Origin: an uncultured Enterobacteriaceae bacterium
GTDB taxonomy: Bacteria; Myxococcota_A; UBA9042
Direction of reading: 5' to 3'
DNA: 64,000 nt
Assembly: GCA_964560875.1 (NCBI GenBank)
Contig: CAZLMW010000025.1
Location: forward strand, 812-64,811
Below the pieces are notes generated by a model. It did not search any database, was not told the DNA's origin, and saw nothing but the letters and a program-made list of their open reading frames with translations. A program made the translations under genes and the position numbers. Positions 12,654 through 58,763 of this stretch are shown here, in pieces (position 1 is the stretch's first letter; each line of letters opens with the position of its first letter).

Positions 12654-14090
12654 CTACAGCGATTTCTTAGCCGCGGGCGCGGTCTTCCAAACGAACAGGC
12701 CAAGCGTTCCTTCCGGATGCGCCGCGGTGCCGCCGAACTCCGCGAGACCCGAGACGTCGCCCACGACGTAGCGATTGCCGGCTTTGTCGAACGCGATCCC
12801 GTAGGCGCCGTCTTCTTTCTCCGACCCGGCCAGCACGGTGGATGTGACATTGCCGTCGGTCCCCAACTCGATGATGGCCGCGTCGAGGCTGCCGTAAGCG
12901 GTGCGGCTCTTGGCGCCGATCTTGACCGTGCCTTGGACGTACCCGGCGATGTGCGTATGTCCGGCGCTGTCGACAGCCAGGTCCATCTCCTCGATGGCGT
13001 CGTAGTCCGCAGTCCACTGCGCAGTGGCCCAGAGAGGCTTGCCGGCGGCGTCGAGCCTCGTGACGAACGTCGCGCCCTTGTCGTCGACAGCGACGAGGTT
13101 GGCCGACCCGATCGTCAGCCCTTTTGCGAGCCAGCCAACAACGGTGATCGAGCCATCGGGACCGAAGCGCGGCAGCTCGGCGCCGTCGTCGCCCTGGCCG
13201 GAGAACGTTCGCGCCCAGGAAACGCGCCCAAAAGTGTCGAAGCGCAGAATCATCGGATCGGAGCCGCTCGCCGACGTGAGCACCGAGTTCATCGCCTTGG
13301 CCTGGCCGGAGAACGAACCAGCTGCGACGGCGCCACCGTCGGGCGCGACGTCCACCGCATAGATGTGGTCCTCACCGCTTCCGCCGATTCCGCGGAGCCA
13401 ACGCAGCTTTCCTTTCGCGTCCCACGAGGCCACGAATCCGTCGCTACCGCCGGCGCTCGTGATCTCTTGAGACCCGGATCCCGCCGTGCTGCTGAAATCG
13501 CCGACCACGACGGTCGCGCCGCTGGCGTTGCCACCGATGCTGAACCCGTAGTCCGACGTTGCGCCGGTCACGGTTCGGACCCATTTGAAGGCGCCTGTGC
13601 TGTCGACGTGCGCGACGAAGGCCGCTTTGCCAACGCCGCTGTCGGCGTTGTGTCCCCCGAACGTGGCTTTGCCCTGCAGCGTGCCGCCAACGAACGAGCT
13701 TCCGTTTGCGGCCCGCACGATCCCGTCGCCCGTGGTGGTGCCCTGCCCTGCAGCGACCGCGTGCCATTGAAACTCGCCCCTGGAATCGAGGGCCGCGACG
13801 AAGACGGCCTGGTTGCCGCCGGTCACGATCTTGTTTTTGCCAAGCGTGATGGTTCCGCGCGCGGTCCCGGCGATGATCGCTTCACCCGCGTCAGTGACCG
13901 CCACGTCGTACGCGCCGATCTCTCCGTCCGCTCCCCCAGCGACCGCGACGTACGGAATGCCGGCCGCTTTGTTCTGCTTGGCCCCTTCGGATTCAACCGT
14001 GGTACTGCAAGCCAATGTCGAGACAGACGCGACGCAGATGACGAGCCATTGGGCGCTTGAGAATGCGTGGTGGTTGGCAGGGCGATTCAT
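12654..14090 (-). CDS. Lipoprotein with SBBP-like beta-propeller repeats
   Basis: Lipobox TLAC. Repeated units such as YDVAVTDAGEAIIAG, YAVDVAPDGGAVAAG and YGIAFDKAGNRYVVG, each followed by D.FV...D..G...W. Confidence 0.85.
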   Translation of the reverse strand: MNRPANHHAFSSAQWLVICVASVSTLACSTTVESEGAKQNKAAGIPYVAVAGGADGEIGAYDVAVTDAGEAIIAGTARGTITLGKNKIVTGGNQAVFVAALDSRGEFQWHAVAAGQGTTTGDGIVRAANGSSFVGGTLQGKATFGGHNADSGVGKAAFVAHVDSTGAFKWVRTVTGATSDYGFSIGGNASGATVVVGDFSSTAGSGSQEITSAGGSDGFVASWDAKGKLRWLRGIGGSGEDHIYAVDVAPDGGAVAAGSFSGQAKAMNSVLTSASGSDPMILRFDTFGRVSWARTFSGQGDDGAELPRFGPDGSITVVGWLAKGLTIGSANLVAVDDKGATFVTRLDAAGKPLWATAQWTADYDAIEEMDLAVDSAGHTHIAGYVQGTVKIGAKSRTAYGSLDAAIIELGTDGNVTSTVLAGSEKEDGAYGIAFDKAGNRYVVGDVSGLAEFGGTAAHPEGTLGLFVWKTAPAAKKSL

Positions 14091-14240: not shown

Positions 14241-17200
14241 ATGGCGTTCGACGTCGGCTACAACCACAAGGCGACCATGAGCACGGCCCTGACCCCGTCG
14301 AAGGCGCTGCCAGGGGCGGCCGTTCGCGCGTGGTCGGCGGCGATCGTGGGCCATGGTTGCGCCGCGGCGGCCCTTGCGTGGCGGTATCGTGGTTGTCAGC
14401 CCGACGACGAACTGCAGGCTCGGATCACAGCCCATGCCTGTGAGGTCTCGGTCGCTATCCCGACCGCCAGAGATGTCACGTTTGCAGCGGTGGCGGCAGC
14501 CTTCGAAGAGGTCTTGCGGGCGCAGCCTGCCGAGTTGATCGCCGTGTGCGCCCGCGTTGGCCAGGTTTGCGTTCACATCGATGACGTCGACCACGACCGG
14601 ACGCTGCTCTCCGCGACCGTCGACACCAGCAATGGTTTGCGAATCGATGTTTCCGTCTCTCCCTCGGCCAGCTTCTTCGCCGTCCAGCCGCGCGTTGCCG
14701 GCCACTACGAGAGGACCCTCAAGGCGATCGCCGCCGACGACACGAGTGCGATCAGCTCGATCGAGATCATCGGCAGCGACGAAGCAGACGTGTTGCGCCG
14801 CTTCAGCGGGCAGGCGTTCCGCCGGGATCTCGCCGCGCACATCTGCCTCTTTGAGTTGTTCGACGCGACCGTCGACGGAGCCGCCAACCGCCCGGCGCTG
14901 ACGTATCGCGGCATCGATGTGACCTATGCGGAGCTCGAGGCCGACGCGAACCGGATCGCGCGCCACCTTCGCTGTGTCGGCGTACGTACCGGGGACAAGG
15001 TCTCGCTGTGGTTGCCGCGCGGATTGCTTCCGTACGCTGCGATCCTCGGCGCGATGAAGGCCGGCGCTGCCTACGTTCCCATTGACCCGGCGTTTCCCGC
15101 TGACCGCGCTCGTTTTATCAACCAGGACGCGGCCGTGTCCGCCATGATCACGGTCACCGAGCTCGGCGGAATGCTCGACGACTGCGAATCCGCCGTTGTG
15201 CTGCTGGATCGCGATCAGGCGGCCATTGAAAAACTCCCGGCGACGAGACTGTCCGCGTCCGATCCCGTGTTCGCCGACGATCGGGCGCCCATCCCCAGCG
15301 ACCCCGCCTACGTCATTTATACGTCCGGCTCGACCGGCGTCCCCAAGGGGGTGCAGATTTCTCACAGCGCCGCGGCCAACCTCGTTCGCGCGTCCCACCA
15401 TGTCTACGATTCGCGGGCGGACGATCGGGTCTTCCAGGGGTTCTCGCTCGCGTTCGATGCCTCTATTGAAGAGCTATGGCTGGCGTTCTACATGGGCGGC
15501 ACGCTCGTCGTGGGTGATGCCGATGTCGCGATGAGCGGCCCGGAGCTCGCCGGTTTCCTCCGCCGCCAACGCGTCACAGCCTGGTCGACGGTCCCCACCC
15601 AACTCTCGATGATGCAAGATGACGTTCCGTCGCTGCGCTTGCTCATCCTCGGCGGAGAATTCTGCCCCACGGAGCTCTTGCGGCGCTGGTATCGCCCCGA
15701 TCGGCTTGTCGTGAACACGTACGGCCCCACCGAAGCGACCGTGATCGCCACGCATGCGCGCTGTCATCCCGATGACGTCGTCACCATCGGCGTGCCTGTG
15801 CCGAACTACCGCGTTTTCCTGCTCGACGAGGCGCAGCGGCCGGTCCCCCTCGGTTGCGCCGGCGAGATTTGCATTGCGGGCCCCGGCCTGGCCGACGGCT
15901 ACGTGGGGCGCGATGAGCTGAACGCGACATGTTTTGTGGCGCCGCCATTTGAGATTGGCGATGGGCTTGCCCAGCGCGTGTACCGGTCCGGTGATGTGGG
16001 CCGCTACGACGACCGCGGCCGCATCCAGTTCGAAGGCCGGGTCGACAACCAGGTCAAGATCCGCGGCTACCGCGTCGAACTCAGCGAGATCGAGTCCATC
16101 CTCTTGGGCTGTGATGGCGTCGCAGCCGCCGTCGTCACTGTGCGCGAAGAGGACGGCATCAAACGGCTCGTCGCATATCTCGTCGCCGCCGCCGGAGCGG
16201 CTCTAAGCGCCTCCGGGTTGCGCGCGACTCTCCGCGACCTCGTGCCCGGCTACATGGTTCCGTCCGTTTTCGCCGCGATGGATGAGCTGCCGTCGCTACC
16301 CAGCGGAAAGGTCGACCGCCGCCGCCTGCCTCCGCCCGAAGAGTGCGCGATCGTCGACGACCGATCGTACGTCGCACCTCGCAACGCCACCGAACGCGTG
16401 CTGCAGTCCGTCATCACCGAGCTGCTTGGCCCATCGCCCGTGTGCATTCACGACGACTTCTTCGACCTTGGCGGTCACTCGTTGCTCGCCGCACGCGCCG
16501 TTTCGCGTCTGCGCAACGAGCCGGGCATGGACGGGCTGTCGATCGAAGCCATCTACCGGTTCCCGACCATCGCCGAGCTCGCCGTCCACATCGACAAGAC
16601 ATATGGCGCGGCGCCGGTTCGCCAGACCATTCGGGTGATGGCCGTCGCCCCCGAACCCGAGCGCCGCTCCATCGCGCGGGCCGCCGCCATCCAGGCCGCG
16701 GCCCTGTACCCATTGCTGGGGCTCTTTTCACTCGCTCTGCTCGTCCCATGGCTACTCGACCGGCTTTTTCCGGCCATCGACGCGGTTGCGTGGCTTGTCG
16801 CTTCCGGTGCAGGGCTGCTCGCGCTACCGGTCCTGCTTGTTGCCGTTTCGATCGCGACCAAGTGGGCGCTAATCGGTCGCTTCGAGGCCGGACAGTGGCC
16901 GTTGTGGAGCGGCTACTACCTGCGTTTTTGGTTCGTTTGCCGCGTTGTCGACCTGGTCCCCATGCGGCTGCTTCGCGGCACACCGTGGATGGCGGCTTAT
17001 CTGCGCTGGATGGGCGCGGATATCGGGCCTGACGTGCACATCGACAGCGATCGATTCCGCGCGTTCGACTTGGTGCGCATCGGCGCCGCGAGCAGCATCG
17101 GTGGCGACGCTCACATGATGGCCTACGAGGTGCGGGACGGTATTTTGCGGGTTGGGCCGATCTCGGTTGGGGACGGCTGCTTTGTCGGCGCACGCTCGGT

Positions 17201-18773
17201 CGTCTCGCACAGCACGCGGCTTGAAGATAGCGCGCGGCTTGGCGAGCTGTCGTTGTTGCGGCCCGGCCAAACCGTACCCGCCGGCGACTATTGGCACGGC
17301 GCCCCGGCCCGCGCCGTGGCTGAGGCGCCCCCTCTTGGAACGGAAAACGCCGAGAGGTCGACCCCCACCATCGGCTGGTATGGCCTGTTCGCCGTGGCTT
17401 TGGCGTGGGTCCTGGCGGTCCCCGTGATCGCGGTCACCCCGACCGTCTGGCTGATGTTCGAAGCGTGGGTCTCTGCCGGTCTCGGCGCCGCCGTTGCCGC
17501 TTCGTTGCCCGGGTCCTGGTTGTTTGTGGCGTGTTTCCTCGGCCTTGTCGCCGCGACCAAGTGGATAGTTCTCGGTCGCATCGAACCCGGGGCGTGGCCC
17601 GTGCACTCGACGATGTACATCCGCAAATGGCTGGTCGACGCGCTGGTGCAGTCGAGCTTGATGGTTGTGCAGCCGATCTACGGCACGATTTGGTTGCCGC
17701 CATGGCTGCGGATGATGGGCGCCCGTATCGGTCGCCGGGCCGAGATTTCGACGGTGGATCACCTCTCGACCGATCTGCTCGAAGTTGGCGACGAGTCGTT
17801 CATCGCCGATTCCGTAAGCGTCGGTCCGCAACGCGTCCACAACGGAGTTGTCGCGGTGGGCGGTGCCCGAATCGGGCGTCGCAGCTTTGTCGGCAACAGC
17901 GCGCTCCTTCCGGCCTCCAGTGACGTTCCGTCCGGCCAACTCGTCGGCCTGGTGAGCCGTCCGCCAGACTCGGATATCGCGGCGACATCAAGTCACCTGG
18001 TGTGGCTGGGTTCGCCGCCGATGGCCCTGCCCCGTCGCCAAAAAAGCGCGTCGTTCGCCGATGAGGAGACGTTCCATCCGCCCCGCCATCTCGTCTTCGC
18101 GCGCGGGATCGTCGAGCTGTTCAAGATCGGGCTGCCACCCGCGCTGTCGATGTGCGTCTTCGTCATTTCGTATTTTGTGTTGGCGGCGATGGGCAATCGG
18201 CTCGGCGTCGTGGGCTACGTACTTGCCGCGCCGCTTGTGGTCCTTTTCGCTGGCATCTTCGCCTCGGGCGTTGTGGTCGCGGCCAAGTGGGCGCTTGTGG
18301 GCAAATACGTCGAGCGAAACCTGCCGCTCTGGCATCCCCACGTGTGGTTGAGCGAGCTGATCAACGCGCTGTGGGAAAACGTCACCTACCCGTTCTTGTC
18401 CCGGTTCCTGCTGGGCACGCCGTGGATGGCGCCGCTGCTTCGAGCCATGGGATCGCGCATCGGCAAGGGCGTCTACATCGACACCATCGAGGTCACCGAA
18501 TTCGATCTCGTCGACATCGACGACCACGCGTGCATCAATTACGGTGCGACCGTGCAGACGCACCTTTTCGAGGATCGGGTGATGAAGATGGCGGGCCTGC
18601 ATATCGGCAACGGCGCGACCATCGGCCCGATGGCGGTTGCGCTCTACGGGTCGGTGATGGGCGAGCGAGCGTGTCTTGATGGCCTGTCGCTGCTGATGAA
18701 GGGCGAGTCGCTGCCCGCGCGGACGAGGTGGGCCGGTTCGCCCGCCCAAATGGTGCCGTACGTCGGCGTGTAA
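14241..18773 (+). CDS. pls: Pls/PosA-family membrane-bound non-ribosomal peptide synthetase (epsilon-poly-L-lysine synthetase-like)
   Basis: SD AGGAGG at 14231-14236. A domain (YTSGSTGVPKG, FDAS, NTYGPTE, YRSGD, QVKIRGYRVEL, PSGKVDR). T domain DDFFDLGGHS (Ser at 16479-16481). Then three TM-pair plus left-handed beta-helix repeats ending in QTHLFEDR. No canonical C or TE domain. Confidence 0.95.
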   Translation: MAFDVGYNHKATMSTALTPSKALPGAAVRAWSAAIVGHGCAAAALAWRYRGCQPDDELQARITAHACEVSVAIPTARDVTFAAVAAAFEEVLRAQPAELIAVCARVGQVCVHIDDVDHDRTLLSATVDTSNGLRIDVSVSPSASFFAVQPRVAGHYERTLKAIAADDTSAISSIEIIGSDEADVLRRFSGQAFRRDLAAHICLFELFDATVDGAANRPALTYRGIDVTYAELEADANRIARHLRCVGVRTGDKVSLWLPRGLLPYAAILGAMKAGAAYVPIDPAFPADRARFINQDAAVSAMITVTELGGMLDDCESAVVLLDRDQAAIEKLPATRLSASDPVFADDRAPIPSDPAYVIYTSGSTGVPKGVQISHSAAANLVRASHHVYDSRADDRVFQGFSLAFDASIEELWLAFYMGGTLVVGDADVAMSGPELAGFLRRQRVTAWSTVPTQLSMMQDDVPSLRLLILGGEFCPTELLRRWYRPDRLVVNTYGPTEATVIATHARCHPDDVVTIGVPVPNYRVFLLDEAQRPVPLGCAGEICIAGPGLADGYVGRDELNATCFVAPPFEIGDGLAQRVYRSGDVGRYDDRGRIQFEGRVDNQVKIRGYRVELSEIESILLGCDGVAAAVVTVREEDGIKRLVAYLVAAAGAALSASGLRATLRDLVPGYMVPSVFAAMDELPSLPSGKVDRRRLPPPEECAIVDDRSYVAPRNATERVLQSVITELLGPSPVCIHDDFFDLGGHSLLAARAVSRLRNEPGMDGLSIEAIYRFPTIAELAVHIDKTYGAAPVRQTIRVMAVAPEPERRSIARAAAIQAAALYPLLGLFSLALLVPWLLDRLFPAIDAVAWLVASGAGLLALPVLLVAVSIATKWALIGRFEAGQWPLWSGYYLRFWFVCRVVDLVPMRLLRGTPWMAAYLRWMGADIGPDVHIDSDRFRAFDLVRIGAASSIGGDAHMMAYEVRDGILRVGPISVGDGCFVGARSVVSHSTRLEDSARLGELSLLRPGQTVPAGDYWHGAPARAVAEAPPLGTENAERSTPTIGWYGLFAVALAWVLAVPVIAVTPTVWLMFEAWVSAGLGAAVAASLPGSWLFVACFLGLVAATKWIVLGRIEPGAWPVHSTMYIRKWLVDALVQSSLMVVQPIYGTIWLPPWLRMMGARIGRRAEISTVDHLSTDLLEVGDESFIADSVSVGPQRVHNGVVAVGGARIGRRSFVGNSALLPASSDVPSGQLVGLVSRPPDSDIAATSSHLVWLGSPPMALPRRQKSASFADEETFHPPRHLVFARGIVELFKIGLPPALSMCVFVISYFVLAAMGNRLGVVGYVLAAPLVVLFAGIFASGVVVAAKWALVGKYVERNLPLWHPHVWLSELINALWENVTYPFLSRFLLGTPWMAPLLRAMGSRIGKGVYIDTIEVTEFDLVDIDDHACINYGATVQTHLFEDRVMKMAGLHIGNGATIGPMAVALYGSVMGERACLDGLSLLMKGESLPARTRWAGSPAQMVPYVGV

Positions 18774-18821
18774 TCGGCAGAGTCTGGACCGCGCGTGAAT
18801 GCCGCAAACACCATCCATTCC

Positions 18822-19631
18822 ATGCGTCGCGTCGCGATCGTCGCAGCTTTGGTCGTTGCGTTGGGGACCGTGTCGTCCCCTGCGTTCGCCGTCGACACGA
18901 ACGAGACCATCGACCACGGCGCGATGTATTTTGAGTTCTTCGTTGGCTATTACGGCGTGAACAAACCGCTCTTGCAGCAACAGGTTGTTTCCGGCGGCGC
19001 CATGGCGTTCGGCCTGGCCGAGGGGTTTACCGGCTACCTGTCGCTCGCTGGCCGCAGCAACCCCTATTTTGGCGACGGCTACGGGCGGACCGGATTCGGC
19101 TTGCTGTACACGGTCTACAACTCGCCGCACGTGTCGATCGACCTGATGCTCGACGCAGGAACGGGCGGCGCTGGTCCGCAGCCGTTGCTCTTTCATCCAG
19201 CCGCTGAGCTCAACAGCGGTTTCGCGGTGACTCCCGGGCTGGAATTCAACTACGACCACGACGAAGAGATGAATGACTGGGGCCTGTTTGGCGTCGTGCA
19301 GGAGATCGTCACCGGCCGCACGAAGATCGCGTACGACGACGAGCTGAACGAGACCGTGACCTACACCTTCGCGCCGTGGATGCGCCTGACGACGGGCGCG
19401 TACATCACCGCGATACCGGACACAGAACAGTGGTTGATCCAAGCGCTCTGGCGGTGGCGACAGAATCCAGACACGAACCAGGCGACGTTCCAGGTCGATG
19501 GCATTGGCATGGGCTACAACCGCATGCTCAACGACGAGCTGGAAGTCGCGACCGAAATCTACCTCGATATCCCCAACGAGACCGGCGAGGTGTGGGGGAT
19601 CGGGCTCGGCATCGGCGTGCTTCGTTGGTAG
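18822..19631 (+). CDS. Hypothetical secreted protein, probable outer-membrane beta-barrel
   Basis: Sec signal MRRVAIVAALVVALGTVSSPAFA, Gly/aromatic-rich amphipathic strands and a C-terminal GIGLGIGVLRW with terminal aromatic residue. Confidence 0.7.
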   Translation: MRRVAIVAALVVALGTVSSPAFAVDTNETIDHGAMYFEFFVGYYGVNKPLLQQQVVSGGAMAFGLAEGFTGYLSLAGRSNPYFGDGYGRTGFGLLYTVYNSPHVSIDLMLDAGTGGAGPQPLLFHPAAELNSGFAVTPGLEFNYDHDEEMNDWGLFGVVQEIVTGRTKIAYDDELNETVTYTFAPWMRLTTGAYITAIPDTEQWLIQALWRWRQNPDTNQATFQVDGIGMGYNRMLNDELEVATEIYLDIPNETGEVWGIGLGIGVLRW

Positions 19632-20224
19632 CCAGAACGCTCGTCTTGGCCGTGGGGGTTGCGGTCATCGTGGCGCCGATGGATGCGCGGGCGGCGTCGA
19701 AAACGGACCACCAGCGGCTTGAGAAGTACTACTCCGTCCAGCAGACACCCTATTCGTGTTCGATGGCGACAGCGCGCATGGCCATCGGGGCGCTGACCGG
19801 TCGAACCATCACCGAACGCACGCTGCGTAAGGCATCACGTGTCAGCCGCAACGGGATGTCGCTGGGACGGTTGGCGGGGTTTCTGCAGCGCTACCGACCC
19901 AAAGGCGCGCGGCGCGGATTCTGTGTGAAGAAGACGATCGCTCCGTCCAGGAAGCGGTTCGTCGCGCTCCTCAAATCCGTGCAAGCCGATCCCGCGCGTA
20001 TCATGACGTGTCGATGGAAGCTGCCCGATGGCACGACGCACCACTCGCCGATCGCGAAGCTGGGACGCGGCAACAAGCGCGTGTACGTCATGGACGTGGA
20101 TCGTGGACCGCGCTGGATCGGTACCCAGGCGTTCGTGCGCGCCATGCGCAGCCAGCTCACCGGGTGCCTCGTCATCTCGAAGAAGCCCAAACGTCGAGGC
20201 CATCGCAAAGCGGGCTGCCGCTGA
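19625..20224 (+). CDS. Secreted papain-fold cysteine peptidase (C39/phytochelatin-synthase-like)
   Basis: The TTG start overlaps the upstream stop. Signal peptide, QQTPYSC (oxyanion Gln and catalytic Cys), HHSPI (His) and VMDV (Asp), paralleling HFSP...LDV of PCS. Confidence 0.75.
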   Translation: MVARTLVLAVGVAVIVAPMDARAASKTDHQRLEKYYSVQQTPYSCSMATARMAIGALTGRTITERTLRKASRVSRNGMSLGRLAGFLQRYRPKGARRGFCVKKTIAPSRKRFVALLKSVQADPARIMTCRWKLPDGTTHHSPIAKLGRGNKRVYVMDVDRGPRWIGTQAFVRAMRSQLTGCLVISKKPKRRGHRKAGCR

Positions 20225-20280
20225 GCCGAGAATTCGCGCCGAAACTACGGCAAGCGTGCGGGCGCGGCTATCATGACGCC

Positions 20281-20871
20281 ATGCAGCCGATGACTCAGCG
20301 CGATATCAAGACGCCGTTGACCATGGATCGGCGCGCGCGACAACTCCTGACCGCGGTTGTGACCGGCATGCTCGTCGTCGGCACCTGGGGATGCGGATCC
20401 GCGGCGGCGTCGCGAGCGGAAAGGCAAGCGCGGCTGCAGGACAAACTCGCGCGCAACGCGGTTGTGGCGCTGGGCCCCGAGATCATCCGGGTAACGCCAG
20501 GCGATATGTTTACAATCGACGTTCAAGTGCGTGTTATTGAGGGTTTTTACGTTGTCGCCCATGGCGCCGAAGAGCAGGATTTGATGCCGGCGTGGATCGA
20601 CGCGCCCAAGCGGGGAATGCTCGTCACCAGGAAGACCGTTTGGCCCAAGGGAGGGCTGGTCGAGCTGCCGGGTCGGTCCAAACCGCTGCCGTCATACGAC
20701 AAGCCGTTCATCGTTGGCCTGACGGTGCACATCGCGCCCGGTGTGCAGCCCGGTGATCGCACGGTGACGATCCCGTTTCACTACCAGCAGTGCACGGTGC
20801 GTGGCTGTGAAGTGCCGCGAAAAAGGGATGTCCGCGTCAGCCTCGAAGTGCTGCCCAAACCGACCGAATAG
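20281..20871 (+). CDS. Lipoprotein with DsbD N-terminal-like (Ig-fold, redox-active Cys pair) domain
   Basis: Lipobox TWGC, GFYVVAHG, and YQQCTVRGCEVP resembling the nDsbD YQxC-x4-5-CxxP motif. Confidence 0.7.
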   Translation: MQPMTQRDIKTPLTMDRRARQLLTAVVTGMLVVGTWGCGSAAASRAERQARLQDKLARNAVVALGPEIIRVTPGDMFTIDVQVRVIEGFYVVAHGAEEQDLMPAWIDAPKRGMLVTRKTVWPKGGLVELPGRSKPLPSYDKPFIVGLTVHIAPGVQPGDRTVTIPFHYQQCTVRGCEVPRKRDVRVSLEVLPKPTE

Positions 20872-20910
20872 CTGGTCTTCTCTGTGCGGATAGCTCCTCT
20901 TTCTCTGCAA

Positions 20911-21798
20911 TCAGCTCGGCGCCCGACGTCGCCTGGTGGCCGCAAGCACGACCGCGCCCAAGACGATTGCGCAGCCGATAGCGACGGTTGGTTGCACGGT
21001 TTCATCGAGCCACAAGTAGCCGAGAATCGACGCCCCAACTGGCTCCCCGACCGTCGCGATCCCGACGACGACCGGTGTCGTGTGACGCAGCGACCAGGTC
21101 AGCAATCCGTGGCCGACGATTTGCGGCAACAACGCGGCGAGGCCGAGGTAGACAAGCGCTTCGGTGGATGACGGAGCGAGCGACACGCCGGTTGCCAGCG
21201 CGACGACGACCAAGACCCCCGCACCTGAGCCACAGACCACGCCCATGAAGCCGAGCACATTGAGGTCGGGCCGAAGTCCCCGAGCGACGATCATGTAACC
21301 GGCCATGGCAGCGGCGCCCAACAACGCGAGTGCGTCGCCGAGGAGGGCGTCGGGCGAAGACCCGAAGTCGGCGCCACCGATGAGCAAAACGCCGATCAGC
21401 GCGAGGCCGAGGGCGAGCCAGAGGTGTGAATCGGGGCGGTCGCGACCGGTGATGAGCGACACGATCGCGAGCAGCAAAGGGGTTGCCGTGACCAGCGTCA
21501 CCGACGCCGCGACGGTCGTGAGTCCCAGCGACCACACCCACGACCCGAAATGAAGGGCGTACAGCGCGCCTCCAGCGGCCGCGGCACGAAGCTCAGCAGC
21601 GCCCAGGTTTGCGGCCCGAAGCGCGCGAATCGACCACGGCGCCAGCAACACGGCCGCGATGGCGAGGCGCACGGCGGACGCGCCGAGCGGATGGGTTGAC
21701 GCGGCTTTTCGAAAGAAGATCGCGGCGAATGAAATCGCGGTCACTGCGCCAAAGAGCGCAAGAGGCACGAGCCGGGCTCGCGGCGGGTCGGTCGACAC
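20911..21798 (-). CDS. DMT/EamA family transporter
   Basis: About 10 TM segments in two EamA repeats; SFAAIFFR, HFGSWVWSL.LTTVAAS and GEPVGASIL motifs. Confidence 0.92.
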   Translation of the reverse strand: MSTDPPRARLVPLALFGAVTAISFAAIFFRKAASTHPLGASAVRLAIAAVLLAPWSIRALRAANLGAAELRAAAAGGALYALHFGSWVWSLGLTTVAASVTLVTATPLLLAIVSLITGRDRPDSHLWLALGLALIGVLLIGGADFGSSPDALLGDALALLGAAAMAGYMIVARGLRPDLNVLGFMGVVCGSGAGVLVVVALATGVSLAPSSTEALVYLGLAALLPQIVGHGLLTWSLRHTTPVVVGIATVGEPVGASILGYLWLDETVQPTVAIGCAIVLGAVVLAATRRRRAPS

Positions 21799-21845: not shown

Positions 21846-23237
21846 CTACAGGCCCATGTACAAGCGCGCCACGCCGTCCAGACCTGCGGGCGGGTATCCG
21901 CGCGGGCCGGCGTACTTCATGCCGTTGATGAACACGCTCGGCGTGCCCGAAATGCCGGCGCGGCTGCCCTCCTGCGAGTCGGCGTCAACGAACGCCTTGT
22001 GCTTGCGCGACGACAACGCGTCCATGAAGCGCGGCATGTTCAGGCCGATCTCCTTGGCGTAGCGGATGAGGTCGTCCTTCTTGAGCGCCTGCTGATTCTC
22101 GTACAGCTTGTCGTGGTACTCCCAGAACTTGCCCTGCGCGTCCGCCTCCTGGGCCGCTTCTGACGCGAGCTGAGCTTCGGGGTGAATGCTGTTGAGCGGC
22201 ATGTGCTTGTAGACGATCTTGACCTTCTTGGGGTTCTTCTTGGCGAAGAGCTTCAGGTTCGGCGCCAGCTTGCTGCAGAAGGGGCACTGGAAGTCCTCGA
22301 ACACGACGACTTCAACTTTGGCGTCGCGCGGGCCAAACGTCGGGCTGTTCTTGGTGTTGAAGCTGAGGCGACGGCCTTCGGTCTGCGGGAAGAACTTGCC
22401 GCCCGAGATCATGCGGTCGTAGACGTCCTTGGGCGCGGTGCCCTTCGACGTGAGCTCCTCGGATTTCTTCAGCACCTTCTCAACGAGCGCTTTGAGGTTG
22501 GTGTAATCCTTCGGCTTACCGATGCGGATGCCGTTGGCGAGGATGTTGGGGAAGGAGTGACTGCCTGTCTCGTTGGCGATGACCGAGTCGCGCGTGAGAA
22601 TGCCGTACGTCTCGTGCGAATCGAGGCAGCGTTTCCACTTGCGGTACTTCAGCTTGAGCTCCTTGGCGTAACCCTCGAGCGCGCTGCGGCCGATGTTGAA
22701 CGGGTTGTCCATCAGCTTGTTGTGGAAGGCCCAGAACTTGCCCTGCTTGTGGGCGCACATCGCGGCTTCAGCGGCCTCGACCGAGTCGGGATGCTGCGGC
22801 GGGATGATCTTGTGCTTGAAGCGGAACTGCACTTTGCCCTTGTACTCGTCGTACACGCGCTTGGCGTCGTTCCAGAAATCGGTGCACGCCTGGCAGCCAA
22901 AGCCCGACAAGATGACGACCTTCACGGGCGCGCTGTCCTTGCCCAATGTCGGGTCGGTGCTGTGGATCTTCACGCGCCAGACCTGGTCGGGCTTGGGCGC
23001 GGCGGGTGGCGGCGGCGGCGCGGGAGGCGGAGGTGCGGCCGGCGGTGCTGCGACCGGAGGCGGCGCGGGGGAAACCGCACCGGGCTGAGCTGCAGCGACG
23101 GCACCCGGGTTCGCCGCGACGCCAACGGGGGCGGCTGCGACGGCTTGGGCTGCGGGCTGTTTCGACGTCGCGCGACCGGCGATGTAGCCGATGACGAATA
23201 CCGCGACGAACAGGATGTAGGCCTGTTCCTTCTTCAT
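21846..23237 (-). CDS. Membrane-anchored protein with two DsbA-like thioredoxin domains
   Basis: N-terminal TM helix and Pro-rich linker. Domain 1 has GFGCQAC and SFP; domain 2 has FEDFQCPFC and GISGTPS. Confidence 0.92.
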   Translation of the reverse strand: MKKEQAYILFVAVFVIGYIAGRATSKQPAAQAVAAAPVGVAANPGAVAAAQPGAVSPAPPPVAAPPAAPPPPAPPPPPAAPKPDQVWRVKIHSTDPTLGKDSAPVKVVILSGFGCQACTDFWNDAKRVYDEYKGKVQFRFKHKIIPPQHPDSVEAAEAAMCAHKQGKFWAFHNKLMDNPFNIGRSALEGYAKELKLKYRKWKRCLDSHETYGILTRDSVIANETGSHSFPNILANGIRIGKPKDYTNLKALVEKVLKKSEELTSKGTAPKDVYDRMISGGKFFPQTEGRRLSFNTKNSPTFGPRDAKVEVVVFEDFQCPFCSKLAPNLKLFAKKNPKKVKIVYKHMPLNSIHPEAQLASEAAQEADAQGKFWEYHDKLYENQQALKKDDLIRYAKEIGLNMPRFMDALSSRKHKAFVDADSQEGSRAGISGTPSVFINGMKYAGPRGYPPAGLDGVARLYMGL

Positions 23238-24631: not shown

Positions 24632-27600
24632 TCACCTGGGATCGAGGTCGGGCGCATCGTAGCAGACCGCGTCGCCGTTGGAGTCGGCGCGCCGGACCGC
24701 GATCAAGATGGTGGTCGCGAGCAGCACCAGGAGCAGCCAGGCGATGGATTGGCCCGGACCGACTGGCCTGGTGCGCGCGCTGCAGCCGTTTTCTTCGTCC
24801 GAGGGCTGTTTGGTCTGCGTCTTTTCCGCGTCTTTGCGCTTGCCGTCATCGCGCACACCGGGTGGTCCACAGGTCCCATCTGACTTGGGCGCCTCGTCGT
24901 CTGCGCACATCAGCACCTCGAGCTCCGCGCCGGCGAGGTGGCCGCCGTAGTCGCTGACCAGCAGCTCTACTTTGTAGCGACCAGCCGGCAGCACCTTGCC
25001 GTCGGGTGGCCCGACGATGTTCGGAGCGTCGACCCGCATGATCCACGTGTGATTGAGCTTGTAGGTGGCCGTCGCGAGCGGCTTCTGGAAGCGATAGACC
25101 AACTTTCCGCTGGTATCTCGCATCGTGAGTCGGGCGCTCGCGAGGCGCGTCTTGTCGGACAGGTCGGCCTTGAGGACGGTCGTGAAGACCTTGCGCGACA
25201 CTGTCGCTGGCTCCGCGCGGAAGTTGGTGATGTGTGGCGCTGACAGGTCCACGACCTTGACGCCGTCGGACGCCCGTGGACCGGAGAAGGAGCGGCTGGC
25301 GCCCGCCTTCGTGTAGCCCAGCACCTCAGCTCGGTAGAGCGTGTTGGGCTGCAGGTGAAGCTTGTTGACCGTCGTCCCGGTCACGTTGCCGACGTCCTTG
25401 AGCGAGCTCACGACGGCCCCGTCCTGGTCGAGCAGCCGGATCGCGTAGCCATCGGCCTTGTCGAGCTTGGCCCAGTTGACGTGGACGGCGTCGGTCGTCT
25501 CCTGGAAGTCGAGGTCGGCCGCGTCGGTCAGGGCCGGGCCGGTTCCCGCGTTTTCGCGCACCCATGCGGGCGGCTTCAGCGCGTCCTGCCCGAGCACGGA
25601 GAGGTACCCGTCAGGGGTGCCCACAACCACCTCGAGCAGGTTGTCACCGTCGAGATCCGCGGCGATTGTGCCCGCGACAGTGCCGGAGAAAGCGAGCGAC
25701 CAGACGACATCGCCGGTCAGGGCACGGGCCGCATAGAGCCGGCCTTCCGTCGTCGAGAAGAGCAACGCCGACTTGCCCGTTCCGTCCAGGTTGCGCACAC
25801 CGATGAGGCCATCGTTGGTCACGCCGCCTGGCGCCTGTGTCCCCGGCGGCAGCGCTTTTCCGGCGGCGTAGCCACGGTCCCAGATGGGTTTGCCGGTCTT
25901 GCCGCTGAGCGCGCGCAGGGCGGATGTGCCGTGCTTTGTCGTCACCACGCGGGGCAGCTTGCCGTCGGTCCAGGCGACGGCCCGGCGGTGGTAATAGAGC
26001 GAGCTCTTGTCGGTCCACAGTTGCCCGAACTTGGGGCCGACGTAGGCGCCGATGCCGCCTGCGCCTGATGCGATGATGGGGTCGAGCGGCGGCTTGGTGT
26101 CGAGGTCGAAGAGCATCGGGATGCCGTACGTCACGTTGCCCTGCTGCACGTAGTTGAGCTGCTTGCCGGTCTTGAGGTCGCAGCGCCACCGGTAAACATA
26201 CGCCGACGCGACGGCGACGGGCGACGCACCGGACGTGTCGATGGCGATCGGTCGGCCGGCCATGGCGCTGGCGCACTCGGCGGATGCAGGCCACATCAGT
26301 TTGCCGGTTTTACCGTCGAGAACGCGGAAGAACGTGCCCTCGGGTGCCGGGTTGATGGGCGTTGTGAACGACGCGATCACGTCGATCGCGCCATCGCCGT
26401 TGACGTCGTGCAACGCAAACGCGTCCCCTTCGGTCCACCGCGCCCAGTTCATGCTTTCATTGGCGTGTTTGAAGGTCCAAAGGGCGGTTTTCGACGCGAG
26501 CTTGGTCCCGTCGAACGCTGTCAGCCAGGGGCGGCCGTCTGCGCCGCTGTGACGCACGAGCAGGTCGAGTTTGCCGTCGCCGTTGACGTCGGCGAGGTTG
26601 GCGCGCACCCAGCCGCGGAACCGGTCTTTGAAGCGTTGCACCGGCGCGTCGGTCGGGCCGGCCTTGGCCGCGTCCAGCATCCACACCCACGAGCCCGCGC
26701 TCACGGCCATAGCGGTCGCGCCGCCTTTCGGGTCGCGATCCACGATCACGTACGGGTTTGTTTGTCCGCCGTAGCGCAGATCCGCGACCCCATCTTTGTC
26801 ACCGTCGTTGATGCGCTGGAGTTTGCTGTCTAGCAGCTCGGTTTCGCCGTTGCCGAGCAGGATCGCGGGGAGTTTCAGGTCGCCCTTGCGCAACATGACG
26901 CGCGCCATCGGGCTCGCCGCCAGCGTTCCCGACGCTGTGACCTTCGCCTGTCCGTCCGGCGTGACGGCGAGCAGCGCAACCGCGTCGTCGAACCCATCGC
27001 CATCGGTGTCGGCTGTGCGGAGCAAGTGCCCGGCCGTGTCGAGTCCGTCGATAGTGAGCAGTTGGCTGGGACGCGGGAACACGGTCGCGGGCACGGCTTT
27101 GGGGCGGACCGCGGCGTAGCGCCCCTTGGTCAGCTCCCCCATTGCCTGGAAGCCCAGGCTTCGCGACCACAGCACAAAGGCGTGCGGCAACGCTTCGATC
27201 GTGGCCTTCGTGCCGCGTTTCTCGGCGAGCAGCAGCACTTTCTTCGAACCGGCCATCGACCATGCGTTCGTCAGCGCGTAGCCGAGGCCAGATGTCGCGG
27301 GTAGGTCGTGGAGCATCGAGCCCGACAACGCATCGAACGCGCGCAGCCGCCACCCGGACGCGGTGCGGGTCGACGCGATGACCTCGGCTTTGCCGTCGCC
27401 GTCGAGGTCGCCGATTGCCGCGGCGGGCGCCCGAATCGCGTTTTTCTTGGGATCGCCGGCGTTGACGATCCAAAGGCGCTTGATCTCCTTGCCGACAAGC
27501 TGAAACGCCGCGACGGCGCGCTGGTTGTTCTTGAGGCCGGACGTTAGGCGGTCGGCGACGCAAATGACGACAGGGTTGGCGTTTTTCTGGGGGAGGCTCA

Positions 27601-28387
27601 CCGCGTCATCACAGCGGACGATGCCGAGGTCTGCGGAATGACCCAGCGCTTTGCCGGTCAAACCGGACCATGCGAACGCCCGTCCGCCGTTCTTCTCGGT
27701 CGCCAGCGCGCTGAACACATCGGGCAGCCCGTCGCCGTCGACGTCCACAACCAGCTGCTCATGCGCAAAGACCTTGTCGCCGAGGGCGGTGGTATCCGAC
27801 GTCACCGCCAGCTCCTTGGCGCCGGACTTGAACGTAAAGATGCGGGTCTTGCCGCCGAGGGATTGGCCATACGAGCCGCCGTTGGCCACCGCGACCTCGG
27901 CCAGGCCGTCGCCGTCGAAGTCCGCAAGCGCCATGAACGCGCGGTACTTAAAAGCGCCGTCCTTGGGCGCCCACACGGTCTTTCCGGTGGTTGTCGACAC
28001 CAACACGACGCCCGCTGGGGTGCGGCACAGCAGTTCATCGAGCTGATCGCCATCCACATCCCCGCGGCCCGGGCACGCGTCGATTCCAAGCGAAGCTGTG
28101 CGCCACAGAACGGTTCCGTCGGTGCCCCGCGCGGTGGCGGCGCCGGCCTCGATCGCCAACACGTCGTCATAGCCGTCAAGATCGGCATCCAGCGGACGCA
28201 ATCCGGTGGCGCTGCCGCCCAAAAAGAGGCGCCATTTCAGCGCCGGGACGGTGATCTTGCCCTTGCCTTCGGTGAACGAGGAGTTGTTCGAATCGTGCCG
28301 CTGCAGCTGCCAGGTCTGCGCAAACCCGAGGTTGCCCATGCCCAGCACGGTGGCGAGGATCACAATCGCTATGGAGGACTTGAACAT
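24632..28387 (-). CDS. Large secreted FG-GAP/VCBS-repeat beta-propeller protein with FN3-like and FlgD-Ig-like domains and a MYXO-CTERM-like C-terminal anchor
   Basis: Signal peptide, about 12 D.DGDG..D/E Ca-binding repeats, and C-terminal GCS...WLLLVLLATTILIAVRR. Start uncertain (28387, 28483 or 28513). Confidence 0.88.
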   Translation of the reverse strand: MFKSSIAIVILATVLGMGNLGFAQTWQLQRHDSNNSSFTEGKGKITVPALKWRLFLGGSATGLRPLDADLDGYDDVLAIEAGAATARGTDGTVLWRTASLGIDACPGRGDVDGDQLDELLCRTPAGVVLVSTTTGKTVWAPKDGAFKYRAFMALADFDGDGLAEVAVANGGSYGQSLGGKTRIFTFKSGAKELAVTSDTTALGDKVFAHEQLVVDVDGDGLPDVFSALATEKNGGRAFAWSGLTGKALGHSADLGIVRCDDAVSLPQKNANPVVICVADRLTSGLKNNQRAVAAFQLVGKEIKRLWIVNAGDPKKNAIRAPAAAIGDLDGDGKAEVIASTRTASGWRLRAFDALSGSMLHDLPATSGLGYALTNAWSMAGSKKVLLLAEKRGTKATIEALPHAFVLWSRSLGFQAMGELTKGRYAAVRPKAVPATVFPRPSQLLTIDGLDTAGHLLRTADTDGDGFDDAVALLAVTPDGQAKVTASGTLAASPMARVMLRKGDLKLPAILLGNGETELLDSKLQRINDGDKDGVADLRYGGQTNPYVIVDRDPKGGATAMAVSAGSWVWMLDAAKAGPTDAPVQRFKDRFRGWVRANLADVNGDGKLDLLVRHSGADGRPWLTAFDGTKLASKTALWTFKHANESMNWARWTEGDAFALHDVNGDGAIDVIASFTTPINPAPEGTFFRVLDGKTGKLMWPASAECASAMAGRPIAIDTSGASPVAVASAYVYRWRCDLKTGKQLNYVQQGNVTYGIPMLFDLDTKPPLDPIIASGAGGIGAYVGPKFGQLWTDKSSLYYHRRAVAWTDGKLPRVVTTKHGTSALRALSGKTGKPIWDRGYAAGKALPPGTQAPGGVTNDGLIGVRNLDGTGKSALLFSTTEGRLYAARALTGDVVWSLAFSGTVAGTIAADLDGDNLLEVVVGTPDGYLSVLGQDALKPPAWVRENAGTGPALTDAADLDFQETTDAVHVNWAKLDKADGYAIRLLDQDGAVVSSLKDVGNVTGTTVNKLHLQPNTLYRAEVLGYTKAGASRSFSGPRASDGVKVVDLSAPHITNFRAEPATVSRKVFTTVLKADLSDKTRLASARLTMRDTSGKLVYRFQKPLATATYKLNHTWIMRVDAPNIVGPPDGKVLPAGRYKVELLVSDYGGHLAGAELEVLMCADDEAPKSDGTCGPPGVRDDGKRKDAEKTQTKQPSDEENGCSARTRPVGPGQSIAWLLLVLLATTILIAVRRADSNGDAVCYDAPDLDPR

Positions 28388-28578
28388 GTGTCGACTCCCG
28401 CCGGCGCCGCAGCGTCCGGTCGTTCCCGCCTCTAAAGCCGTTGTCGGGCTCAAACTGAAGGTTGCAAGAAGGAGTATGTACATAACCCGTCCGGGATCGG
28501 CTACGGCTCCCACGCGGGCGATCGAGATCTGCTACCATCGTGGCTGTGACGCCGATTGGAATCCCCTGCCGGATCGCG

Positions 28579-31500
28579 ATGATGAACCGTCCAAGCGCCC
28601 GCCCTGAGCTCGCGGGCTCATGGCTTCGTACGATCGTTCCGATCGCTGTTGCTGCAGCGCTCGCGGTCGCGTGTTCGGACGAACCGGGCGAGGAGTCGAC
28701 TCCCGCCAACGACACGCTGGTCTTCAACGTCCCGGATGCGGGGCCGAATTTCACCGGCGACGATGTGGTCGAAGCCGATGTCGCCGACTCCAACCAACAG
28801 GTCGATGACGCCGACGCGGCCGCCGACACTGGCCCGATCAAGTGCGACGACCCGGGCGGGTGGGGATGTCCGTGCAAGGGCAATGCCGACTGCAACAGCG
28901 GCTACTGCGTCGAAACGGCCGAAGGCAAACAGTGCAGCAAGCTGTGCGTCGAAGACTGCCCGGGCGACTGGCAATGCGTCGGAGTCAAGGGTTCCACCGG
29001 CGATCTGACGTTCATCTGCGCGGCGCCGTACGTGACCCTGTGCCGGCCCTGCGCCAAGGACGGTGATTGCGAGCAGTTGGGCGCGGAAATCGGCGTTCAC
29101 CGCTGCATTCCCATCGACGGTCCCGACGGCAGCCTGGTCGGCTCGTTCTGCGGCTACGGATGCGCGAACGGAGGCAACTGCCCGACCGGGTTCTCGTGCA
29201 CGAAGCTGTCGATCGGCGGCAGCACGATTGAACAATGCAGGCCCGACAACGGCACGTGCAGCTGCAGCAAGCAGGCGACGGCGGGCGGATTTGCGACCAA
29301 GTGCACGACGAAGAACGCGTTTGGAACCTGCGGCGGTCAGCGAACCTGCACCGACAAGGGACTCTCGGCTTGCGACGCGCCCGTCCCGGCGACCGAGGTG
29401 TGCGATGGCAAGGACAACGACTGCGACGGCGAGACCGATGAGGGCTACATCCACAACGACTTCGGCGTGACCAAACCCATCGGAAAACCATGCGGAGCGG
29501 GCGCGTGTGCCGGCGGCGAGGTCGTTTGCGCCAAGGACGGGAAGGCGGCGATTTGCAGTACCGGCGGCGGCAACGTCGAGCTCTGCGATGGGGCGGACAA
29601 CGACTGTGACGGCGCCACGGACGAGGCCAACGAGCTCGATCCGAAAGCGGCCAAGTGTTTCGACAAAGGCGTCTGCGCCGCTGGCGGGGCCAAGGCCACG
29701 TGCATCAAGGGGTCGTGGTCGTGCGACTACGCCGGGGTCAAGCTGTACGAAGCCACGACCGAAGTGTCGTGCGACGGCAAGGACAACGACTGCGATGGGA
29801 GCACGGACGAAGACTTCACCGTCGGCGCTGGCGGCAAGAAGCTGCCGGTCGGAGCGGCGTGTGGCGGCATCGGCATCTGCAAGAAAGGCATCGTCGAGTG
29901 CAAAGACGGTGTCGCGGGCGTGGCGGTCTGTTCAACCGGGGCGGGCGGCAGCAATGACGGCAGCAAGGGCGAGCGGTGCAACGATCTCGATGACGATTGC
30001 GACGGTGAGGTCGACGAGGGGTGCGACGACGACGGCGACGGCTTCTGCGACGTGCTCATGAAGATGGAAGGCGCGCCCAAGATCTGCGGCCAGGGCGGCG
30101 GCGACTGCGACGACAACAACAAGTTCGTCAATCCCGGCGCGACCGAGCTTTGCGACAACATCGACAACGACTGCAAGGCCGGCATCGACGATGGCTGCGA
30201 CGTCGACGGGGACGGCCACTGCTCCGACAAGATGACGATTGTGGGCAACCCATCGGTCTGCAAGAAGCTTGGCTTTGACTGCAACGACAAGGACAAGGCG
30301 ATTCATCCTGGCGCCAAAGAGGTCTGCGACGGGATCGACAACGACTGCAACGGCCAGGTGGACGCCGCGGATCTCAAGCTCAAGGACGTCGCGCCCAAGT
30401 GCGGCAATCAAAAGGGCGTCTGTGCCGGGTCGCTGCGACCTGCGAGCAAGTGCAACAACGGCAAGTGGCTCGCTTGCGATACGGCGGCGTATTTCGCCCA
30501 TCACGGTGCGTACGAAAACGCGCAATCTGAAAAGAGCTGTGACGGCGCCGACAACAACTGCGACGGCAAGATCGACGAGGGCTGTGACGACGACGGCGAC
30601 GGCCATTGCGACGCGGCCAAGGACACCAAGGGCGACCCGAAAATCTGCCCAAAAGGCGGCGGAGACTGTAACGACAAGGATGCTAAGGTCCATCCGGACG
30701 CCGTCGAGCTGTGCAACGGCAAAGACGACGACTGCAACAAGCTCGTGGACGCGAGCGACCCGAAGCTCGCCGCCAAACGGCCTCCATGCGAGAACCAAAA
30801 GGGTGTGTGCAAGGGCGCGCTCAAGCCCGTGTCGCTGTGCAAGAAGGGCAAGTGGAAGGCGTGCACCGATACCGAATACAGCAAGCATTCGCCGTTTCAC
30901 GAGCTCGGCCTGAGCGACCAGACCTGCGACGACATCGATAACAACTGCAACGGCAAGATCGACGAGGGCTGCGACGTCGATGGCGATGGCTCGTGCGGCA
31001 AGCTCAAGAAGGTGAAGGGGACGCCGAAGGTCTGTCCCAAGGGCGGCGGCGACTGCAACGACAACAACAAGGCGGTCAATCCGCACGCGCCCGAGGTGTG
31101 CGACAAGGCTTTCGTCGACGAAAACTGCAACGGAAAGGTGGGTGAGGCCGGCGCCAAGGGGTGCACCAGCTACTACTACGACGGCGACTCCGATGGCTAC
31201 GGGTCCAAGGGCTCAACGCCGATCTGCCTGTGCCAACCCGACGCCGTGAAGAAGCTGACCGCGCTCAAGTCCGACGACTGCAACGACGGCAACTTCAACG
31301 TCAATCCCGGCGCCAAAGAGACGTGCGCGACGGCCGGTGACGACAACTGCAACAACAAGGCGCAGGAGCTCGGCGCCGCGGGCTGCAAGATCTATTGGTA
31401 CGACCCTGACTTCGACGGTTTTGGCAGCGTCACCCACCCGCCGCGATGCCAGTGCTACCCCGACGCACAGACCAAGTACACGGCGACCAAACCCGGCGAC

Positions 31501-36779: not shown

Positions 36780-36931
36780 CAATTGCGAGAAGACAGGGTT
36801 GAGTGAATATGGCACCGCGCGCTACCGCCGAGCCTAGCACATCGACAATCGGCCATCACAAAGTCTCGATAATGCTGTTTTACTCTGCCGGTGGGGCAGG
36901 CATTCGGGGGGCTTCGTGGCATACTCCGGCG

Positions 36932-40357: not shown

Positions 40358-40370
40358 AGCCGCCTAGAGC
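40350..40370. repeat. Perfect 10-bp tandem duplication CCGCCTAGAG x2 at a convergent gene junction
   Basis: Read directly. Each copy contains CTAG; the two copies supply the TAG stops of the two convergent genes. Confidence 0.9.
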
Positions 40371-58754: not shown

Positions 58755-58763
58755 TGGCGGGTT

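Follow-up and report, generated by a model that had tools for sequence, protein, structure and literature searches.

Introduction

The closest described counterpart of the locus considered here is the pls-pldII pair of Streptomyces, in which pldII is translationally coupled to the synthetase gene pls; its product acts outside the cytoplasm and is needed both for self-protection and for the 25-35-residue length of the polymer (PMC9223678). PldII is a zinc metallopeptidase, and S. albulus has no outer-membrane component in this system because the producer is a monoderm. The sole characterised diderm member of the Pls/PosA family is PosA, the delta-poly-L-ornithine synthetase of Acinetobacter baumannii, and the paper describing it makes no mention of export or of the outer membrane (PMC10522769). 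Here, we analyse a Pls/PosA-family gene and the three genes that follow it on the same strand in a 64,000-nucleotide stretch (the window) of contig CAZLMW010000025.1, from an uncultured bacterium placed by GTDB in Myxococcota_A. In order, these genes encode a synthetase predicted to polymerise lysine (g1), a predicted outer-membrane beta-barrel (g2), an exported papain-fold enzyme (g3), and a small exported protein (g4). We propose that they form an accessory module, specific to one clade and built on a lysine-polymerising Pls/PosA synthetase; it would combine polymer synthesis, outer-membrane passage, and periplasmic processing, and we give this reading about an even chance of being right.

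Compared with pls-pldII of S. albulus, the locus carries a synthetase of the same family with predicted lysine specificity, accompanied in S. albulus by a peptidase gene coupled to the synthetase gene. It differs in having an outer-membrane candidate and in the class of its peptidase, which is a Cys-His-Asp papain-fold enzyme and not a zinc enzyme. Moreover, the constant partner of Pls here is the barrel gene and not the peptidase gene. Pfam and NCBIfam scans found no metallopeptidase family in g2-g4 or the neighbouring genes; the resemblance to PldII is functional and positional only. In the literature searched, neither partner genes nor an outer-membrane step were found described for Pls-type polymers in diderms.

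Gene Order and Linkage of the Predicted Barrel Gene to One Synthetase Clade

Four co-directional open reading frames (ORFs) were confirmed in the block, with coding supported by a GC content at third codon positions (GC3) of 0.75-0.83; the window as a whole is high-GC (~65%). The features are as follows:

14241-18773, plus strand: g1, Pls/PosA-family single-module non-ribosomal peptide synthetase (NRPS), 1510 aa, predicted to activate lysine
18822-19631, plus strand: g2, secreted acidic protein of 269 aa, predicted to form an outer-membrane beta-barrel of ~12 strands
19625-20224, plus strand: g3, exported phytochelatin-synthase-like papain-fold enzyme with Gln39, Cys45, His139, and Asp157
20281-20871, plus strand: g4, exported protein of 196 aa with an N-terminal hydrophobic anchor or a non-canonical lipobox; membership of the block uncertain

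The intergenic spacings g1-g2, g2-g3, and g3-g4 are 48, -7, and 56 nt, and this recomputation reproduced the gene placement, the 48-bp gap, the overlap, and the 56-bp gap given in the initial annotation. An alternative GTG start of g2 at 18795 would shorten the g1-g2 gap to 21 nt. For g3, the start picked by public gene callers is a GTG at 19652; the TTG at 19625 is preferred because the GTG drops the charged n-region of the signal peptide. With the TTG start, the first 7 nt of g3 coincide with the end of g2, an overlap suggestive of translational coupling between the two genes. A promoter and terminator scan of the locus gave no signals above chance, and a weak terminator-like hairpin lies at 20862-20877, at the end of g4. 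Three metagenomic contigs (L001-L003) carry near-identical copies of the region.

A profile search recovered 20 clusters of the g2 family; a word-index search with g2 only reached two close relatives, and a metagenome scan with the profile gave two loci only. At all 15 g2-family loci for which upstream DNA is available, a Pls gene lies immediately upstream (the window; L090-93; L094; L084-89; L104; L004; L005; L095-L099; L101-L103). The copies at L090-93 and L094 are 56-59% identical to the g2 of the window and those at L084-89 and L104 are 31-37% identical. L004, L005, L095-L099, and L101-L103 belong to low-GC Fibrobacterota/Chitinivibrionales, and the others are high-GC. Outside the block, the neighbours vary: nitroreductase, Sua5, GH9, or DUF1622 genes upstream, and FAD oxidoreductase, ferritin, cyclase, or histidine kinase genes downstream. 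Furthermore, when 84 Pls homologues were placed in a neighbour-joining tree, those with g2 behind them grouped in a clade of their own (monophyletic), and all of them carry the same specificity code.

This combination of strict synteny, varied flanks, and monophyly argues that g2 and this Pls clade have been inherited together. The family that g2 founds is covered by no Pfam or NCBIfam model, and its members occur only directly downstream of Pls genes from a single clade. A reading in which unrelated envelope genes merely happen to lie beside Pls could point to g4, which is syntenic only locally; it is contradicted by the 15 of 15 informative loci, which span at least two very different lineages with differing flanks, and by the monophyly of the g2-followed Pls genes, and we find it hardly credible. 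The recurrence of the same gene order in distant genomes likewise shows that the arrangement is not a matter of chance.

Among L084-L089 (GCA_964410605.1 and JGI/ENA contigs), assembly stops inside Pls in five of the six contigs, and L087 begins within the g2 homologue. These breaks possibly result from the triplicated C1-C3 repeats or from strain variation.

The Synthetase and Its Predicted Monomer

The initial annotation described the first gene as Pls-like, and this identification was supported. The product of g1 scores 594.7 bits with TIGR02353 ('Pls/PosA family NRPS'), for which the cut-off is 423.1, and the match spans positions 2-695 of the 695 in the model. Its only Pfam domains are AMP-binding, AMP-binding_C, PP-binding, and Hexapep, and it has no canonical condensation or thioesterase domain. 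The layout comprises an N-terminal extension of ~190 aa, an adenylation (A) domain, a thiolation (T) domain with the carrier motif GGHS at residue 744, six transmembrane helices, and three tandem hexapeptide-repeat polymerisation domains, the structure of which is known in this family from models only (PMC10522769). The six hydrophobic segments are arranged in three pairs at ~821-871, 1048-1112, and 1290-1345, which set the three tandem soluble domains apart. By its sequence, g1 is a bona fide member of the Pls/PosA family, with the same domain architecture as PosA.

The Stachelhaus code of g1, read off an 84-sequence alignment, is DAESIGTVIK, which is identical at nine of ten positions to DAESIGTVVK, the proven lysine code of Streptomyces albulus Pls (supplement of PMC10522769). 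It has the Asp at position 1 and the Glu at position 3 of diamino-acid codes, together with Ala at position 2, which marks the lysine-activating members of the family (PMC10522769). In contrast, the code of PosA, DMEHNGTVSK, corresponds to ornithine, and the enzymes for diaminobutyrate (Dab) and diaminopropionate (Dap) have Phe at position 2 (PMC10522769). On the basis of the near-identical code and the Ala at position 2, lysine is the predicted monomer of g1. Its product would most likely be epsilon-poly-L-lysine, a prediction in which the linkage is not readable from sequence.

The N-terminal extension (residues 1-~190, window 14241-14820) precedes the A domain and matches nothing in Pfam. 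Several Pls clades, some of them without g2, have extensions about as long, and their sequences are not alike. The extension was considered as a clade marker and rejected, since it is also present in Pls proteins that lack g2 and shows no detectable similarity between lineages. It may be a remnant of a condensation domain, because its last ~20 residues resemble a C-A linker.

Sfp-type phosphopantetheinyl transferase (PPTase) genes adjoin Pls in 25 of the 80 nearest Pls loci, standing immediately after it in 24. A hidden Markov model (HMM) built from the 25 Pls-linked PPTases found none in the 64-kb window at E<=10, which extends the earlier statement that no PPTase is adjacent to the whole of this stretch. 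Similarly, the reported lack of an adjacent M1 metallopeptidase agrees with the present scans, which found no metallopeptidase of any family among the neighbouring genes covered, the rest of the window having been scanned only in part.

A Predicted Outer-Membrane Barrel

The protein encoded by g2 has a signal-peptide-like N-terminus, contains no cysteine, and ends in ...LRW; the last residue is W in 19 of 20 family members and Y in the other. In its mature form, it has an isoelectric point (pI) of 4.2, with 31 acidic versus 10 basic residues, and the pI of the family is 4.2-4.3 in high-GC members and 4.4-6.2 in others. No Pfam or NCBIfam model matches g2, so it has no sequence-level membership in the FapF or KdgM/NanC families, and a search of PDB sequences with its profile was empty at E<=10.

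Structure prediction gave a clearer picture. A first AlphaFold2 (AF2) model, built from a 3-sequence alignment, was unusable, with a predicted local distance difference test (pLDDT) of 39.8. The model from a 20-sequence alignment reached a pLDDT of 74.2 and a predicted TM-score (pTM) of 0.70, with beta hairpins throughout, and its strands show the alternation of hydrophobic and polar residues that a membrane barrel requires. A Foldseek search of this model against the PDB produced 171 matches at E<=0.001, and all 50 among the matches listed are outer-membrane barrels, led by FapF, NanC, OmpG, a COG4313 channel, and autotransporter beta-domains. For FapF and the NanC/KdgM porins, the E-values were 6e-8 to 7e-7, and the TM-scores reached at most 0.61 for FapF (query-normalised) and 0.74 for NanC (target-normalised). 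On this model, g2 is predicted to be an outer-membrane beta-barrel, and the earlier assignment of the protein encoded at 18822 to this class holds at the level of prediction.

The best structural matches, FapF (Pseudomonas functional-amyloid secretion) and NanC/KdgM, are barrels of small size through which a linear polymer or a charged oligomer passes, and their genes lie with those of the cargo pathway. They show no detectable sequence similarity to g2, the g2 model lacks the N-terminal plug or coiled-coil of FapF, and the cargo of g2 would be a polycationic isopeptide, unlike theirs. A channel role is proposed for g2 by analogy with the 12-stranded FapF and NanC, which pass unfolded polypeptide or charged oligosaccharide.

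Some of these same relatives could be read in the opposite direction. NanC and the COG4313 channels are 12-stranded uptake channels, and a periplasmic peptidase is compatible with a catabolic role, so the barrel might admit external or shed polymer, or lysine oligomers, that the peptidase then degrades for reuse or detoxification. However, the module has no conserved transporter for uptake across the inner membrane, and the strict linkage of g2 is to a synthetase, not to catabolic genes; we consider a role in import, recycling, or defence very unlikely.

The Exported Papain-Fold Enzyme and Its Counterpart in Fibrobacterota

The identification of the third gene as encoding an exported Cys-His-Asp papain-fold enzyme was borne out by several lines of evidence. 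The protein matches PF05023 (Phytochelatin) with 33 bits against a gathering cut-off of 24.9, and a profile of its family finds Nostoc Alr0975 (2BTW) with E=1.4e-41. Within the aligned family, Gln39, Cys45, His139, and Asp157 do not vary. The His and the Asp lie 18 residues apart, just as in AtPCS1 (His162/Asp180) and in the Nostoc phytochelatin synthase (PCS) Alr0975 (NsPCS; MEROPS C83, PF05023), which has the same fold family and the same Gln/Cys/His/Asp set. HMMs for Peptidase C39 and C39_2 scored 15.5 and 15.8 bits on g3, below their cut-offs of 22 and 24. Read from the TTG, g3 begins with a normal signal peptide whose end is ARA|AS, and its relatives P0002 and P0003 carry lipoprotein signals. 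The family is small: only seven relatives turned up when 1.84 billion representatives were searched exhaustively with HMMER, and a word-index search with g3 returned only the query's own cluster.

Compared with NsPCS, g3 is ~40 residues shorter and has a pI of 11.7. A 3-residue deletion removes the Lys-Tyr pair (Lys206/Tyr207) of the acceptor-cavity loop in g3 and P0002 (DVDRG---PRW versus DVSRYKYPPVW), and the position of NsPCS Arg173 is occupied by Lys. Because this loop is missing, the chemistry of g3 is not readable from NsPCS. The initial annotation had also invoked phytochelatin synthase as an enzyme acting on gamma-Glu isopeptide bonds, and this part needs to be corrected. Phytochelatin synthase cleaves and forms the peptide bond at the Cys alpha-carboxyl, not a gamma-Glu isopeptide bond, and the analogy is correspondingly weaker than was stated.

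The window also contains a canonical PCS-like gene at 40364-41308 on the minus strand, whose product matches PF05023 over its full length with 183.7 bits, keeps the YKY acceptor loop, and is 26% identical to g3. The next gene on the same strand, at 41226-42071, encodes a Vut_1 transporter.

The order Pls, g2, g3 recurs on six contigs (L084-L089) that carry P0002, the closest relative of g3 (42% identical), and in L104, which carries a further relative. In Fibrobacterota, most of the complete loci show Pls, g2, a secreted protein of 469 aa, and then a convergent gene for a Peptidase_C39_2 lipoprotein. All three Fibrobacterota partners scanned pass the PF13529 cut-off of 24 (33 bits in L004 and 26.5 bits in L005), and the C39-like lipoproteins have an invariant Cys in GWCAE and an invariant His in LDHF. 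Comparison of the C39-like family with PDB sequences gave empty or marginal results. The contig of L101 ends inside the convergent gene after the 469-aa gene. A papain-fold gene thus accompanies Pls-barrel pairs in both lineages found: an exported cysteine peptidase of this fold recurs with the pair, but it is not one orthologous gene.

The ~469-aa proteins (L004:14999-16405, L095:8988-10397, L096-L099, L101-L103) form a secreted, repeat-like family with 20-23 Trp and no Pfam match, and in Fibrobacterota their gene always lies between the g2 homologue and the gene for the convergent C39-like lipoprotein.

A different use for the polymer is also conceivable, namely its retention at the cell surface. 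The barrel would then anchor or present the polymer, with an effect on surface charge, adhesion, or the capsule, and the papain-fold enzyme would act as a transpeptidase that, in the manner of phytochelatin synthase, goes through an acyl-enzyme and hands the acyl group to an amine, here joining the polymer to an envelope acceptor. Enzymes of the PCS type are natural transpeptidases (PMC3855540), the partners at other loci are membrane-held lipoproteins, a donor or a membrane surface of anionic character would be a good fit for the basic g3, and the large W-rich repeat protein of Fibrobacterota is a possible binding partner. Set against this, no acceptor or anchor motif was identified, the Lys206/Tyr207 pair that lines the acceptor cavity of PCS is missing from g3, and the known polymers of the Pls family are released into the medium (PMC9223678). 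On balance, surface retention appears distinctly unlikely.

Proposed Mechanism and Its Weighing

In the preferred reading, that of a module for synthesis, passage, and processing, g1 would activate L-lysine in the inner membrane and polymerise it into a cationic isopeptide polymer, which would arrive in the periplasm. The g2 barrel would then offer this linear polymer a passage across the outer membrane. Stray or nascent polymer would be cleaved or transferred in the periplasm by g3, contributing to self-protection or to the control of chain length; this processing role is proposed because the zinc peptidase PldII has it next to pls in Streptomyces. In Fibrobacterota, the slot of g3 would be filled by the C39-like lipoprotein.

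Several observations weigh against this proposal. The first concerns its generality. A survey of GTDB species representatives took in the 80 nearest Pls loci, which come from many phyla and are at most 45% identical to g1. A relative of g2 was found in only two of them, directly after Pls; these are the two best matches, and both are metagenome-assembled genomes (MAGs) of Fibrobacterota. The other 78, many from diderms, have none. Moreover, PosA of A. baumannii is encoded by an operon that consists of one gene, without a co-transcribed partner (PMC10522769). Consequently, a dedicated barrel is not generally needed by diderm Pls enzymes, and g2 is not a general companion of their genes.

The second group of objections concerns g2 itself. 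Confidence in the model is only moderate (pLDDT 74.2), the count of ~12 strands was read from secondary structure and the best matches and not from coordinates, and the lumen as deduced is only mildly net-acidic, with invariant arginines. The remaining objections concern the peptidase. Both g3 and P0002 are without the Lys206/Tyr207 loop of PCS enzymes, and homology between the g3 family and the C39-like one is not demonstrable (~1% probability by hhalign). In addition, the pI values of g3 (~11.7), P0002 (~10.2), and the C39-like lipoproteins (9-9.8) are unexpected for enzymes acting on a polycation; by way of speculation, they could be reconciled with such a substrate if g3-type proteins and the polymer alike bind to membrane surfaces of anionic character. 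Finally, g3 is missing in L094, where g2 is followed by a homologue of g4 with no room for g3. Since the L094 g2 (56% identical) directly precedes that homologue, g3 has been gained or lost recently. The co-occurrence expected by the initial annotation therefore held for g2, which always accompanies the Pls clade (15/15), and held in part for g3, which follows Pls-g2 at L084-L089 and L104, is absent in L094, and is replaced by another papain-fold gene in Fibrobacterota.

These observations lend some weight to a narrower reading, in which only Pls and the barrel are coupled, and g3 and the C39-like enzymes act elsewhere, for instance on glutathione-like thiol peptides, as canonical PCS-like enzymes of bacteria do, or in envelope-protein maturation. 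The absence of g3 in L094, its pI of 11.7, the lack of demonstrable orthology between the two families, and the canonical PCS-like paralogue 20 kb away, which implies that the family has other roles in the organism, all favour such a separation. Nevertheless, two papain-fold families have been recruited beside the same pair in distant phyla with variable flanks, which is hard to explain without a shared role, and the 7-nt overlap of g3 with g2 suggests translational coupling. We regard this narrower reading as unlikely, if still worth bearing in mind.

Returning to the full module, a more far-reaching version can be formulated. The g2 family may be the first outer-membrane conduit dedicated to a cationic isopeptide polymer of non-ribosomal origin and, together with a membrane-associated papain-fold enzyme, may constitute an unrecognised poly-lysine secretion and self-protection system. 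Such a system would be common to Fibrobacterota and a high-GC diderm lineage, its peptidase slot having been filled independently by two cysteine-peptidase families. We advance this version tentatively and place it somewhat below an even chance.

Neighbouring Genes and Pls Loci of Other Lineages

The last gene of the block, g4, has a non-canonical lipobox, VGTWGC, and a C-terminal YQQC-x4-C motif. The initial annotation called its product DsbD-N-like; the motif is the sole basis for this name, as Pfam gave no match even at E<=10, and neither NCBIfam models nor PDB sequences gave any. A homologue of g4 (57% identical) stands directly after g2 in L094 (1213-1440), the only recurrence seen; g4 is absent from L084 and from the Fibrobacterota loci, and it shows no relation to the 469-aa family. 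Hence, g4 probably does not belong to the core of the module and is a neighbour specific to its lineage.

The genes that border the block are as follows:

12654-14090, minus strand: gene for an SBBP beta-propeller lipoprotein, divergent, upstream of the block
20911-21798, convergent: gene for an EamA transporter, downstream of the block
21846-23237, convergent: DsbA/thioredoxin-like gene, downstream of the block

The EamA exporter and the DsbA-like gene were considered as parts of the module and rejected, being convergent and conserved at no other locus. Elsewhere, the window encodes large FG-GAP and MopE-repeat proteins (24632-32724), a 1184-aa protein with Ser/Thr kinase, NB-ARC, and TPR repeats (36803-40357, plus strand), and a 927-aa protein with a spermine/spermidine-synthase domain (55980-58763, minus strand). 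Gene content of this kind is typical of Myxococcota-like genomes.

Pls loci of other lineages have different companions. In Bacteroidota, Pls is followed by a PPTase gene and then by a gene for an unannotated secreted protein of ~290 aa (L008:14633-15502, L010:6482-7363, L012:6815-7693, L033:14855-15796), which shows beta-strand-like alternation near its C-terminus and may play a comparable part in the envelope for a different Pls clade. The secreted partner in Verrucomicrobiota is yet another one, with a weak, sub-threshold PepSY match in the one member scanned. The Pls proteins of Methanosarcinaceae and Methanothrix MAGs (L049, L077, L078) are 39-42% identical to g1, and a PPTase gene lies immediately downstream.

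Conclusions

Three protein groups are added here to the surroundings of Pls/PosA synthetases, namely the families of g2 and of the 469-aa protein and the subgroup of g3, none of which had an existing annotation. Synthetases of this type have by now been recognised widely among double-membraned bacteria and archaea, and poly-lysine-type polymers are commercial preservatives and candidate antimicrobials. How a membrane-damaging polycation leaves a diderm cell, and how its producer survives, is not addressed in the papers found. A barrel inherited strictly with one synthetase clade is a concrete candidate for the outer-membrane step, and the recurring exported cysteine peptidase is a candidate for self-protection or chain-length control. 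Together, the barrel and the peptidase would serve the heterologous production of these polymers in Gram-negative hosts, as well as genome mining.

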